Assembly: GCA_951406725.2 (NCBI GenBank)
Contig: OX597831.1
Coordinates: 51,522,001-51,586,000 of the forward strand
Source: Octopus vulgaris
Taxonomy: Eukaryota
Length of the DNA: 64,000 nt
Direction of reading: 5' to 3'
Shown: piece by piece, positions 1,860 through 53,700 of the stretch
Layout of the letters: each line of letters begins with the position of its first letter
Position numbering within the stretch: the first letter of the stretch is position 1
Notes under the pieces: generated by a model
What the model was told of the DNA's origin: nothing
What the model saw: only the letters and a program-made list of their open reading frames with translations
Database searches by the model: none
Made by a program: the position numbers and the translations under genes

Positions 1860-2045
1860 AAACCGAGACAAGACAAGAAAAAGCAGCAACGCGAGGACGT
1901 AGTACATGCAAAGTGTAAATAAGACGCCCGGGGAAAGAAAGAAAGGGTGTTTTACGTTTCGAGCAAAGCTCTTCTTCAGAAACAGGAGACAGAGGAAAAT
2001 CCAAAAGAAAAGGAAGGCAGAGGAAAAAGATCGCCAACAATCCAA
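1860..2045 (-). mobile_element. Short hammerhead-bearing element (Penelope pseudo-LTR-like)
   Basis: Homologous to 17360-17560; next to TA runs; contains a hammerhead core. Confidence 0.65.
1948..1984 (-). ncRNA. Minimal type I hammerhead ribozyme motif
   Basis: Minus strand TGTTT CTGAAGA A GAGC ttt GCTC GAAAC GTA AAACA. Confidence 0.7.
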
Positions 2046-2110
2046 TATATATATATATATCTGTGTGTGTGTAAATATATATATATATATATATATATGT
2101 GTGTGTGTGT

Positions 2111-47700: not shown

Positions 47701-50700
47701 TGGGATTACCATAAACACTTTAAAATTTAAACTTCTTAGTTTGGTGAAGTTAATCAAACTTACATGGACTTGGGAAATAAATTACAGTTTGAAATTCAGT
47801 ATGAAATTGTTTCTTTATGAATCAGAATTTTGGGAATTTTATTTTATTTTTATCACCTTTGCTGTATGATGTCTTCTATTTTCATTTAATTTTGTGAATA
47901 AAAAAAAAATGATTTTACTCTTTCTCAGCTTTCAAAATTTCTACAAGAAATGCAAGATAATGATTTTATAAAAGTGGCCCCAAAAAGTAAAGGTGTTGAT
48001 GAAATAATATGGTTAAATAAAGACCATACAGAGTAAGATTACAACTCAATTTTTATTTTCTTTATAGTTTTAAAATTTAATTATTAATTTTCTTGTATAA
48101 GGTGATGGGTTTAAAAAAAAAAACACTTGATGCCTAACTTTTTTTTGTGCATTTAAGACAAGCCATCATACCTAATACAGCAGACTTCAATCTAAGTCAG
48201 GACTATATTGGATATGCTATCATATAATGTTTGGTGGTATGAAATGTAGCCTAATACAGCATATTTATTGGAGATTTAATCTGTTATCTAGATGGCTTAA
48301 TTAGTAGTGTTGGAGGCTGTTCTCAAATATAGTAGCCCGTGTAAGAACAGGGTGGAGAAAGTTTAAACATGTATTCTCTCTGAAAGGCAGACTGTATGAT
48401 GCTTGTGTATGAACTGTTTTTGCTGGGCTTAAGAAAATTAGTTGTTCTTAAAGAAGTCTTATTGTGGAGAATTAAATTGAAATTCATCTGTTTTTATGTG
48501 TAGTGGTAAACTCATAAGTATTTATTTTCAATAAAAATTTCTATATTTTTGTAGGCTTAGAGATTTGATTGTTCCTGATATTACGGAACAAATGAAAGAG
48601 TCTGAGGATGATTTTCAACTACCCAAAATTACTGAAATGCGGATTGTGACAGCAGCAGTTTTGCCAGTTTTGAAAGAATATGGTTATGAGTAAGTTAGAT
48701 ATTTAATTTTATTTTGATCGGTGTCAATAATGTCTCCTTTCTCTCTGGACACGGCTGAAGAAATTCAAGAGCTAGTTGGTGTCTTTAAACTGAGTGGTTA
48801 AGTGCATTCAGTACCACATTGTCAAATCTCCTATTATCTTGAGATAATAGGAGATTTGGCAGTTATTTCTAGCAGGTTGAACCACTGTGTAGGGTCCCAT
48901 TACCACCACCATTGCCTAGAGAAAGAGAGTTTCTTATATGTGTGTGCGTGTCTCTGAATCTTTTGAGTTGTGGAAAATGTTTGATCAAAAGTGAATTACT
49001 TCAAATTCACTGATCTAATTTCTTGAACATTCAAAGTTATCATCAAGGTCATAGTTTCAATGTCCACCTTTCCATTCTTGTATACGTTGGATAAAGCTTA
49101 ATAAGGCAAATTTTCCAAGGTTGAACATCAATTCCTGTCATCAACCCTCCCTTGTTATCAAGCAAGGTTTCCTATGGCCAGACATGATTTCTCAGAATAT
49201 TGGAAACAAATAATACATCTTCGATGATAGTGACACTCATTCACAAATATGTTATGTCAAGACAAGGATTCACCCTGCCACACACAGACACATACACACA
49301 CACACTTTTTATTAAGTTTTTTTAGAAATATAGGACACAATTCAAGTCATGTTTCTGTTTTTTAACAAGTAAGAAATTCATCAAATGTGTGTTAGATTTT
49401 TTCTATTTGAATACAATTGTATTTTTACTTTAACTAATCAATAGTTTTTCTTTTAATTTTAACAATGCCAGCAAAGGAAGTACTATGCTACCAGCTGATG
49501 TGAGAGCTGTCATAACAGATTATGTAAAGAAAAATGAATTAAAGTTTGATAGAAGCCAAAGGTAAGAATAAACATAGAGGGTGGGCAAAAGTCATACACC
49601 AAAACATTTCACATTTTATTTATATTATTATTATTATTATTATGTTGTTGTTGTTGTTCATCATGTATGTGTGAAATCATTTTTTTATTTTATTCAATTT
49701 TAATAAAATTGAAGTATGTCTTTGACAATTCTAGAGCATATTGAAGTTTTTTGGGGTGGTTTCCCCTGAATTCTAATTTCCAAATTCCTTAACTATGGAC
49801 ATGCTTTATTGAACTTCATCCAGCCATCTTCTCTGCCCACTGTTCTTGGGAGGATCGATGGGATAGTCCTCAGGTACCTCCTCCACAGGGTGCTTTCAGA
49901 AACTTCCCAACTGGATCCCTAAGCGTGACCAATTGAGACTTTGGGTATCATCCAACCATCTCATCCTTGATCCACCACTAAGTCTCCTGCTGGTTAGCTT
50001 GACTTGAAGAATTTGTCTTCTGATTCCTTTATATGACATTTTAATCACATGTAAAAAGTATGCAGTCAAAACTGTAAAGTGGTTGGCATTTGGAAGGGCA
50101 TCCAGTTGTAAAACCCATGCCAAAACAGACCTCACTGGTGCAGGTTCCACATAAAAAGCACTCAGTCCACTCTGTTGGGTACTTGATGTTAGGAAGGGCA
50201 TCCAGCCATAAAAACCCTGCCAAAACAGACAGTGAAACCTGGTGCAGTCTTCTGCCTAGCCAGCTCCTTTTTCCTCTGAGGAATACATCCTGTAACTCTG
50301 CAGTTTTGAGGACTGGTGGAATACTAATCTCTTACTTGAAAACACTCAAAGGGCATTTTATCATCATCATCATCCTCATACATCTATTTTCCATGCTGGC
50401 ATGGGTTGGACGGCTTGACAGGAGCAGGCAAGCCGAAAGACTGCACCAAGCCCCATTGTCTGCTTTGGCATGATTTTTATAGCTGGATGACCTTTCTAAT
50501 GCCAACCACTCTACAGAATGGACTTGGTATTTTTCATGTGGCACCAGCACTAGTGAGGTACTCCTTTTCCTTATTCTACCTTCTTTGTTAATGGTGAGGG
50601 TGGCTGCAACAACAGCTACCACCAACACCAACACCACCATTATCATCTACCTATGCTTCTTAGCGTGATAGTAAAGCAAAATCTTCTTGTTGCAGTATGG

Positions 50701-53700
50701 TGCAGTTAGATCCTGTTTTAGCGGGAATTGTTCTGCGTTCTGGTGAAAATAACAAATTTTACTTAGGCTGGAAAGACCTGATATCAAGGTAAGATTAACA
50801 ACGTAAGAGCTTTTGTTGAGATTTTATTGATTTCTATGTTATTGAATGTAATTTTAATGGATTTTAAATGCAGTAAATTCCTTGACTATTAGCAGTGTTA
50901 CGTTCCAAAACCCCCCATGATGGTGAAAAACCACGATGCAGAAACAGTACTGTACTGTACTGTTTTTATTTTATTATTATTGTAATTTGTATATATTTAT
51001 TTTATTATAAATGCAAAACAACACCACAGAGGAATCAATGTAAGCTTAAATAATAGACTGTGATAGGTGAGGGATTACTGTAATTCTATATTTATGTCAG
51101 TCCTATATATGGATTTACTTCTGATTCAAATGGAAATATTACTGTTTAATAGACATGGCAGTATGGTTGAGAAGTTTACTTCACAATCATGTGGTCTCGG
51201 GTTCAGTCCTACTGTGCTCCAGCTTGGGCAAGTGTCTTCGACTATGGGTCTTAGGCTGCCCAAATTCTTGTGAATGGATTTGGTAGATGGAAACTGAAAG
51301 AAGCTTACTGTTTACACTCACACATGCACACACACGCACAAATGCAAACAACAGTTGTCAAGTGGTTAGTTGAAGGGGACATGAGAAAGAGAAGGCAGGC
51401 TGGAGAAAACATGGCAAAGGACAGTGTGGGAAGACTTGACCAAGATGTGTATCATCTGGGATGAATGTTGCATTTTGGCTCAGAATGGTACTGCTTGGAG
51501 AACTCTCACCACCTGATGCTCTTTGAGTGAACTGAGATAACATTATTATCATTATCTATTTGTGTGTGCGTATGTAGTTTATATGTATGTATGTGTATGT
51601 GTTCTGTTGTCTTGACATCACATAATGGTTGTAAATGAGTATCACCATCAAGCAATGTTGTTCATTTCCAGCCTTCCATTGGAAACATGTTTGGTCAAGG
51701 GGAAATATTCCTTGCTTGAAAATAAGTTACGGTTGGTGACAGGAAGGGCATCCAGCCATAGAAGATCTGCCTCAGCAGATTCCATCTGACCCATGCAAAC
51801 ACGGAAAAGTTGATGTTAACTGATGCTGATGAATACAGTAGTAATGGATGGATGGAAGCACTCTGTCGGTTACGACGACGAGGGTTCCGGTTGATCCGAC
51901 CAACGGAACAGCCTGCTCGTGAAATTAACGTGTAAGTGGCTGAGCACTCCACAGACACGTGTACCCTTAACGTAGTTCTCGGGGATATTCAGCGTGACAA
52001 GGCCGGCCCTTTGAAATACAGGTACAACAGAAACAGGAAGTAAGAGTGAGAGAAAGTTGTGGTGAAAGAGTACAGCAGGGATCACCACCATCCCTGCTGG
52101 AGCCTCGTGGAGCTTTAGGTGTTTTCGCTCAATAAACACTCACAATGCCCGGTCTGGGAATCGAAACCGCGACCCTACGACCGTGAGTCCGCTGCCCTAA
52201 CCACTGGGCCATTGCGCCTCCACATACAGTAGTAATATGACAGTAATGGAATAACAATAATATGATGGCAATATCTAACAATATCAAACTGGCAGAATCA
52301 TTTGCATGTCAGGCATTTTGTTGAGCTCAATGTTTTGAGTGCAAATACCACCAAGGTCGACATTGCTTTTCATCTTTTCAGGGTTGAGCACTGGGGTCTG
52401 TCTAATCAACTTATCCTCTCTCCCAAAATTGCTGGCCTTGTGCCAAAATTTCAAATCAGTATTTAATAGTATTGATAGTAATAGTAACAAGAAACAAAGC
52501 TGTAAGACTGAAAAATAGCATTTGTAGTGAATGAGAAAAATGCAATAGTAGCCGTGAACACCAAGTTTCTCTGAGTGTCAACTTCTCCACCAAATATTTA
52601 AAGTATATTCTCAAACTGCCAGCGGATTTTCGTTGCTGTTATATCAATATGATGTGTTTATTATTAGCATTTAAGTAAATGTGTTGAATGTTTGGAGATG
52701 TAAATTGTCTGCGGATGTCTGACTAGCAAGGTGAAGCGGCTGACCTCCCCTGTTCGAAGGTTGTAATGGACGCAGGTTCGTGTGTCATATAGCTAGCTAG
52801 AGGTGATGGCATCTTGGAGCTAATCAGTGACAGCTTTAGTCTTATATTTATAGACTGCCATATTACTATGGCGATAACTATTAATATCCAGTAACGCTGC
52901 CGTAATCTCCTTTAGAGAGTCTTAGTAATTTTAAAATTTTAATATTTCTATTATTGAAAACAAGTGAATGTATTACACTGTAACTAGGTAAATAAAATCT
53001 TTGAACAGACGGTCAGTAACGACACCTGCTGGTTCTGACTACACTGCATTGATAAAGGGCAACAACCCTGAAACATGTCTGCAGATGTCTGACTAGCAAG
53101 GTGAAGCAGCTGACCTCCCCTGTTCGAAGGTTGTAATGGACGCAGGTTCGTGTGTCATATAGCTAGCTAGAGGCGATGGCCTCTTGGAGCTAATCAGCGA
53201 CAGCTTTAGTCTTATATTTATAGACTGCCATATTAGTATGGCGATAACTATTAATATATATATATATACACACACACACACATATCACCACTCCTCATCT
53301 ACCTGCTGTGAGCTTTGATTTAAGAAAGAGTGGCTTTGTGATCCTGTCATTCAAGTTTCATGTTTAAAACCATTTATATTTAAGGATTGGGTGCAACCGT
53401 GACTTTGTGTTAAGAAGTTTGCTCCCCAACCATACAGTCTCGGGTTCAGTCTCACTGCATGACACCTTGGGGCAAGTGTCTTTTACCATGACCTTTGGTT
53501 AACCACATCTTTGAGTGGAGCTGGCAGATGGAGACTGACAGAAGCCCATTTTGTGTATGTGTGTTTTACTTTCCCTTTCCTTGACTTGTTGAGATAGTTG
53601 TTAATGAGTGTCATCATTATTGTAAGCAATGTCCTTCATTTTCAATCTTCTTTGAAAACATCTCTCTTCATGGAGAATATTATCACATTACTTGGAAGCA

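Follow-up and report, generated by a model that had tools for sequence, protein, structure and literature searches.

The question raised by this stretch of the Octopus vulgaris genome (contig OX597831.1, positions 51,522,001 to 51,586,000, referred to here as the window; 64,000 nt of the 2.8 Gb in 227 contigs that were searched) is whether five short motifs resembling hammerhead ribozymes are real, what elements carry and spread them, and what the pair between their core positions 3 and 8 says about selection. The original prediction, made from the letters alone, placed them in several unrelated mini-element families mobilised by Penelope-like elements (PLEs). Our results favour, with a probability of roughly 0.6, the explanation that they are type I minimal hammerhead folds located at the 3' ends of PLEs (families A and B) and at those of short families devoid of an open reading frame (ORF; families C and D) that are likely copied by PLE proteins, the folds being predicted to cut slowly, as dimers or with the help of a protein. 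The system is real and mostly known, with two unusual and very abundant core variants, one having G3-C8 and the other U instead of A at position 6 (A6U).

Five cores in four families

Re-reading of the letters located the five cores at every position that had been given for them, with the proposed stem III letters: ACGT in the cores at 1948 and 17461, ACCGATTGGT at 13386, AATATT at 15363 and ACATGT at 53049. All five have the core N3-UGA-N-N8-A9...GAAA...UH with a Watson-Crick 3-8 pair, as well as stems I and II and a short self-complementary stem III competent for dimerisation, the proximal stem I of family B being just 2 bp long. The cores at 1948 and 17461 belong to the same family, which leaves four families (A to D) and not five. 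The canonical C3-G8 pair was found in families A and B but not in C (G3-C8) or D (U3-A8), so that searches limited to CUGANGA miss two of the families, as had been anticipated. A (TA)n run was found at an end of every host element.

A descriptor accepting any letters at positions 3 and 8 gave four matches in the window, all of them Watson-Crick at 3-8, against a mean of 0.7 and a maximum of two in 60 dinucleotide shuffles; it missed the core at 13386 because the proximal stem I there has only 2 bp. A second descriptor, written after the cores had been seen and specifying a self-complementary stem III and just 2 bp of stem I, gave six window matches, again with a Watson-Crick 3-8 pair in every case. 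The shuffles averaged 0.06 matches, with a maximum of one; none of 100 reached six, and positions 3 and 8 were paired in only 21% of the shuffle matches. The rate was therefore higher than in shuffled sequence with both descriptors, and the five cores are real and above chance. When 217 loci (766 kb), chosen in a way that enriches for these families, were scanned, 123 hammerhead matches were found versus none or one in three shuffles. The Rfam search of the window returned 102 matches at an expectation value (E) of 10 or less, none of them to a hammerhead family, canonical cores included. With RNAcofold, dimers lay 5-16 kcal/mol below two monomers, several of these dimers not being the active fold.

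The sixth match to the second descriptor, at 49161 on the minus strand (UUGAUAA, stem I of 2 bp, stem III AAUU), is weak and may be due to chance. At least five further types of C3-G8 motif were noticed in the flanks of loci L003, L028, L039, L056, L088, L180 and L189, several of them with a long stem II and an 8-nt palindromic stem III.

Penelope-like ends and ORF-less units

Family B, with 1,626 candidates genome-wide, has a sharp 3' end, an optional tail of ~65 nt and inverted 5' pieces. The sequence upstream of the hammerhead is common to the copies for ~870 nt and encodes an endonuclease-like C-terminus; when this peptide was used as a query, the hammerhead end of family B was found downstream, in sense, at 21 of 30 loci, ~330-850 nt away. 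A peptide of the same family matched an Atlas cluster with GIY-YIG on 22% of its members (score 0.95), and the family B peptide gave a weak alignment (E 0.007) to a Pfam-confirmed GIY-YIG of its own genome. Family B, which we take to belong to the Nematis clade (clade labels for the families described here rest on motifs), is the 3' end of a 5'-truncated PLE and not a mini-element.

For family A, a first look gave 4,702 candidates genome-wide, and 602 exact matches to the core and its flanks were obtained, with none in the reversed-pattern control; A6 was present in 100 of 100 among the matches listed. The copies are 5'-truncated and have sharp ends, mostly just before (TA)n or (CA)n. Because a long untranslated region (UTR) lies upstream of the copy at 17461, where it is split by insertions at ~17571-17814 and 18000-18361 (boundaries set by eye), and because a piece with reverse transcriptase (RT) motifs was found upstream in 1 of 30 loci (E 2.6e-7), we consider that family A is likewise the truncated 3' end of a long PLE. 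RT/GIY-YIG coding upstream of the hammerhead-bearing end was counted as present in families A and B, to which the label of mini-elements did not apply. A C4 variant (CCGANGA) was recurrent in family A, U4 being absent from 6 of 30 aligned copies and C4 being seen in ~15 of 100 among the matches listed.

A sister of family A, hereafter the A6U family (CUGUNGA), has a full frame with RT and GIY-YIG; one stem I pair that is G-C in A is C-G there. Its core gave at least 17,057 exact matches genome-wide, none of them in the window. Among 100 matches listed, U6 was present in 96, C3 in 99 and G8 in 96, and position 7 (counted by eye) was T in 43, A in 23, C in 22 and G in 12. Loci reached from a protein search (L252-L265, also L227) had U6 in 13 of the 13 with a core, out of 14 examined. 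The family is young, with several near-identical copies, and one 929-aa open frame matched RVT_1 (E 4e-7) and, below the Pfam cut-off, GIY-YIG (E 0.0036). Family K (L218-L231) has a U3-A8 core with stem III ACAUGU, an ACGU subfamily also being seen, and its hammerhead lies downstream of frames matching RVT_1 and GIY-YIG (L223, L229 and L231). Frames of both the A6U family and family K carry a CX4CxxC linker; a search of PDB sequences with a family K frame gave no match. The peptide loci of family B, the frames of K and of the A6U family and the 123 matches in 217 loci agree with the proposal of a large and diverse hammerhead system tied to PLEs.

Family C gave at least 1,477 exact matches genome-wide when positions 3, 7 and 8 were left free, with none in the reversed-pattern control, and 94 of 100 among the matches listed were G3-C8. 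Its unit was described from 20 pattern-picked loci, five of them not independent because they share a larger duplicated segment. It is ~225 nt long, linear and not tandem, with a 5' stop ~15-27 nt before the core, and its 3' part is often present a second time, attached in inverted orientation. The 3' end has two alternative sites ~58 nt apart, the tail being present on the sense copy in 8 of 20 loci. Target duplications were of 8-14 nt; in a test of 48 loci, duplications of at least 7 nt that were not simple TA were found in 9 of 27 copies with both ends located (one of the nine being TA-rich), against 1.6% of 702 mismatched pairs. (TA)3 occurred no more than 20 nt from the 3' end in 14 of 19 cases, compared with a background of 5-9% measured over 25 nt. 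Both the duplications and the position next to (TA)n thus lay well above their controls.

The G3-C8 pair looks confined to family C within the patterns searched. Patterns for other G3-C8 families gave, with stem III ACRYGT, 24 matches versus 34 in the control; with an AT-rich stem III there were 186 versus 44, the listed ones being mostly decayed family C; and cores with neither C3 nor G8 and stem III ACGT gave 476 versus 492. Family K showed no significant match to family C. Pairs of C cores 2.7-6.4 kb apart, considered as full-length PLEs, were rejected: they had no RT frame and proved to be either separate insertions or duplications in inverted orientation. The 3' end of C faintly resembles that of the A6U family, with CAATTG ~60 nt ahead of a terminal CCGT, but this resemblance, seen by eye, was not counted as evidence. 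In L180, L189, L190, L191 and L197 one family C insertion was multiplied inside a larger repeat, whose copies have ~700 nt of common upstream flank with 96-98% identity.

Family D gave 402 exact matches genome-wide, with none in the reversed-pattern control, and U3-A8 in 100 of 100 among the matches listed. It is a closed 365-nt unit with partial tandems, inversions and an optional tail of ~52-64 nt, and it contains no ORF. Family J (L232-L234 and L237) is its 362-nt tandem sister, also U3-A8 and 80-82% identical over the unit. By this layout, an ORF-less head-to-tail unit with a type I hammerhead, D and its sister J would be non-LTR retrozymes (LTR, long terminal repeat). Genome-wide, the pattern with neither C3 nor G8 gave 2,523 matches versus 117 in the control, with U3-A8 in 98 of 100 among the matches listed; families J and K came to light through this pattern. 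Pairs of D copies 1.2-8.7 kb apart were also considered as full-length PLEs and turned out to be inverted duplications or separate insertions, likewise lacking an RT frame. In L208:2-1741 (minus strand) a D copy stands head-to-head with an open frame of 580 aa, which resembles the N-terminus of a PLE, has an Asn-rich insert and gave no Pfam match.

It is quite possible, if somewhat short of an even chance, that D and J replicate partly as circular RNAs, in the manner of retrozyme rolling circles with an active U3-A8 hammerhead, their tandems arising by reverse transcription around the circle. The closed units, the head-to-tail arrays of up to five units, the lack of an ORF and an extended stem I that folds as a monomer (-30 kcal/mol) are consistent with it, and size and layout match the 350-390 bp of mussel retrozymes as given in the available part of the literature. 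However, an uncut multimeric transcript would yield equal tandems, and the optional tail points to priming of the PLE type. Replication through circles can coexist with the copying by PLE proteins that we favour.

Families B, C and D bear the insertion marks of PLEs: their targets are AT-rich, the tail is optional, and the 5' side may be truncated, inverted or partly repeated in tandem. Such ends agree with target-primed reverse transcription of the PLE type at AT-rich sites, a process that by analogy may extend to C and D. Following the scheme of Frangieh et al. (2024; PMC11167929), an RT-GIY-YIG protein would nick AT-rich DNA and reverse transcription would start at two internal sites, giving rise to copies with and without the tail from RNA with an intact hammerhead. 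Selection on the RNA of master copies would keep the 3-8 pair Watson-Crick, and each lineage may have exchanged the pair on one or a few occasions (C-G, U-A and G-C). Cutting, if any, would release or circularise units and would not be needed at the insertion step.

Probable selection on the fold

The occurrence of C-G, G-C and U-A at positions 3 and 8 had been read as the covariation expected under catalytic selection. The pairs were indeed Watson-Crick, and pairing was kept in the large families (94 of 100 G-C in C and 100 of 100 U-A in D among the matches listed). Since the pair was fixed within each family and differed only between families, with no difference seen within any of them, the argument rests on few independent swaps and does not show catalysis. 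The pairing agrees with selection on the fold. It also allows for catalysis, without being proof of it, because at least partial activity in vitro is on record for both U3-A8 and the C3G/G8C double mutant.

The best evidence in this analysis for selection on the fold is the set of compensatory changes between D and J. Across 15 hammerheads of D and J, pairing is kept in 94.8% of cells. Of the 29 pairs, 6 have both partners altered, with all three stems (I, II and III) affected, the core being constant between D and J except at position 7. The two-sided changes amounted to 24 cells, a number reached by none of 500 shuffles; as the sequences are related, this figure is not a P value.

Several results weigh against the explanation by PLE-copied hammerhead folds. 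The very successful and young A6U family breaks the A6 rule, which speaks for spread being possible without a canonical core. In family C only seven copies had both positions 3 and 8 changed, none of them to C3-G8, so that no compensated subfamily was found, and 55 copies with a change in stem I (from 57 matches, two being unrelated) had no compensating change; the recurrent variants of this family were in loop II and one stem I change keeping a G-U pair, other stem I changes being uncompensated. Breaks at the cut site of C were not in excess, being ~10 per 100 (best 100 of 229 matches) versus ~5 per 100 (best 100 of 727) at a control position, both counted by eye. No ORF and no autonomous partner were found in 25 pattern-picked loci of C, nor an RT/endonuclease frame of its own or an autonomous partner in 20 loci of D, family K matching D only at E of 0.02 or more. 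Finally, the family B peptide had no direct Pfam match.

Family C insertions keep the whole hammerhead with its cut site intact, and this, together with the lack of excess breaks, indicates that the template was uncut or re-joined. Such intact copies would also be expected if the motifs were hammerhead descendants kept in PLE RNA as folded signals for protein binding, dimerisation or packaging, with little or no cutting and with the 3-8 pair holding the fold. That reading, which we regard as unlikely, draws on the abundance of the A6U family, where position 7 takes all four bases while U6, C3 and G8 are kept, including in near-identical copies and in the one with the 929-aa open frame. Insertion in vitro was unaffected by catalytic mutations (Frangieh et al. 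2024, PMC11167929), and a natural A6C cleaves poorly. On the other hand, the four window families keep every other catalytic letter, A6 being invariant among the matches listed for A; U3-A8 and the C3G/G8C double mutant retain at least some activity in vitro, and retrozymes of mussel, coral and salamander make circular RNAs. It is highly improbable that the matches are due to chance or that a dead motif has been carried along neutrally: copies do decay within families without compensation and high copy number alone reflects only transposition, but the shuffle controls, the 2,523 versus 117 matches with their U-A pairs, the D/J compensatory changes and the stem I swap between A and the A6U family largely refute this for D/J and A, though not for C, which lacks a diverged sister among the families described.

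The amplification of the G3-C8 and U6 variants makes it likely that the motifs are kept for their fold, their cutting being putative. We suggest, tentatively, that hammerhead core variants have been amplified in this genome to thousands of copies as a kind of natural library, including G3-C8 and a young, coding-intact U6 PLE, which would reflect either protein-assisted cleavage tolerating core changes held to be lethal or non-cutting folds under selection.

Window features and relation to known systems

The features of the window are listed in Table 1. The relic at 2400-3590 had been pointed out as Penelope-like. It is a member of an old dispersed family with weak relatives in the genome, and we assume from motifs that it belongs to the Penelope clade, its genomic relatives reading like RT motif B and GIY-YIG. 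The relic gave no match in Pfam, in phmmer against 1.8 billion representatives or in tblastn with 11 PLE peptides of its own genome at E ≤ 0.01, and it did not match the PLE peptides linked to the sister family of A, to B or to K. It looks like a different and older lineage than the partners of A or B; it is probably not the driver, and its closeness to the core at 1948 is probably a coincidence.

Table 1. Coordinates of the hammerhead families and the relic in the window
Feature	Position	Strand	Remarks
Family A copy 1, 5'-truncated end of pseudo-LTR (pLTR) between (TA)n runs	1833..2045	-	3' boundary approximate
Type I minimal hammerhead CUGAAGA, C3-G8 (A)	1948..1984	-	C3 1979, H17 1953; extra A between 9 and 10.1; stem II 4 bp; stem III ACGU
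Old decayed RT/endonuclease-like relic	2400..3590	-	probably not the driver of these families
Family B copy, truncated pLTR of PLE	13358..13502	+	relatives with endonuclease-like frame upstream
Hammerhead CUGAUGA (B)	13386..13460	+	long stem II; stem III ACCGAUUGGU
Family C inverted 3' part (tail), head-on to sense part	15272..15345	-	
Family C sense part, then (TA)29	15346..15485	+	hammerhead inside
Hammerhead GUGAACA, G3-C8 (C)	15363..15399	+	extra nucleotide before G10.1; stem III AAUAUU
Family A copy 2, pLTR end, hammerhead CUGAAGA	17362..17570	-	C3 17491, H17 17465
CA-rich 3' UTR upstream in family A copy 2	17815..19010	-	interrupted by two younger insertions
Family D partial upstream unit (partial tandem)	52707..52887	+	
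Family D full unit, no ORF, then (TA)7	52888..53256	+	365 nt in most copies
Hammerhead UUGAUAA, U3-A8 (D)	53049..53079	+	extended stem I; stem III ACAUGU

The window is also rich in repeats resembling short interspersed elements and in (TA)n runs, and its repeats have an octopod-like look. A match to U4 small nuclear RNA at 15868-16007 (+), of 60 bits and above the Rfam gathering score, has an intact 5' part and a 3' part replaced by simple repeats, and is likely a pseudogene. Fragments of Tc1/mariner-like transposases lie at 38551-39136 (-) and 13791-14225 (-), DDE_3 being matched at E 0.046 by 38747-39136; beyond this segment the identity is presumed from motifs. A long near-perfect hairpin at 23109-23263 resembles a miniature inverted-repeat transposable element.

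PLE hammerheads, the U3-A8 swap, the link to PLEs and retrozymes are already published, and the general system is not new. The following comparisons are limited to the available portions of the papers. Cervera and de la Pena (2014; PMC4209133) described the type I fold in PLE pLTRs of metazoans, with the extra nucleotide between 9 and 10.1, a palindromic stem III, the consensus CUGANGAH, many families per genome, mostly as single truncated copies, and a U3-A8 variant with ~1,300 matches in Schistosoma mansoni; fold, extra nucleotide, stem III, family diversity and U3-A8 are as found here. Their mollusc examples were Lottia and Crassostrea and, unlike here, no G3-C8 or U6 family was found in that portion. 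Non-LTR retrozymes, proposed to be non-autonomous PLE derivatives (Cervera and de la Pena 2020, PMC7229834; Li et al. 2026, bioRxiv 10.64898/2026.07.22.740005), are ORF-less head-to-tail type I units like those of D/J (362-365 nt). In contrast to them, D/J, known here from DNA alone, combine a U3-A8 core with a clear optional tail, and family C is linear, ~225 nt long and not tandem, with a fixed 5' stop.

The Anolis Poseidon element PAc (Frangieh et al. 2024, PMC11167929) has AT-rich targets, two RT start sites, an optional tail and an intact hammerhead in its template, and its C3G/G8C double mutant partly rescues cleavage; G3-C8 is an engineered state in PAc but the natural one in family C. 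Natural U3-A8 was reported by Perreault et al. (2011; PMC3088659), and position 6 can vary naturally, as A6C with low activity and a preference for Mn2+ (PMC3088659; Naghdi et al. 2020, PMC7151607). The natural core variants were rare in what is available of these two papers, where G3-C8 and A6U, abundant here, were not named. The Neptune and Nematis clades of PLEs (Craig et al. 2021; PMC8557442) share with the families described here the RT, Cys-rich linker and GIY-YIG, as well as (TA)n targets, tail and inverted 5' copies. In the literature searched, no natural G3-C8 or A6U family was found, G3-C8 being engineered only, and larger catalogues of PLE-hammerhead variants may list them.

As both CUGANGA descriptors and Rfam miss these motifs, censuses undercount them, the variant families alone having more than 20,000 exact matches here. 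PLE hammerheads cut poorly alone and cutting is dispensable for insertion in vitro, so that the question is why PLEs carry them. The four core types (C3-G8, U3-A8, G3-C8 and U6) coexist in high-copy families of one genome and can be compared in the same assay, and since the hammerheads of K and of the A6U family lie downstream of RT/GIY-YIG frames, it can be asked whether the protein would rescue cutting.

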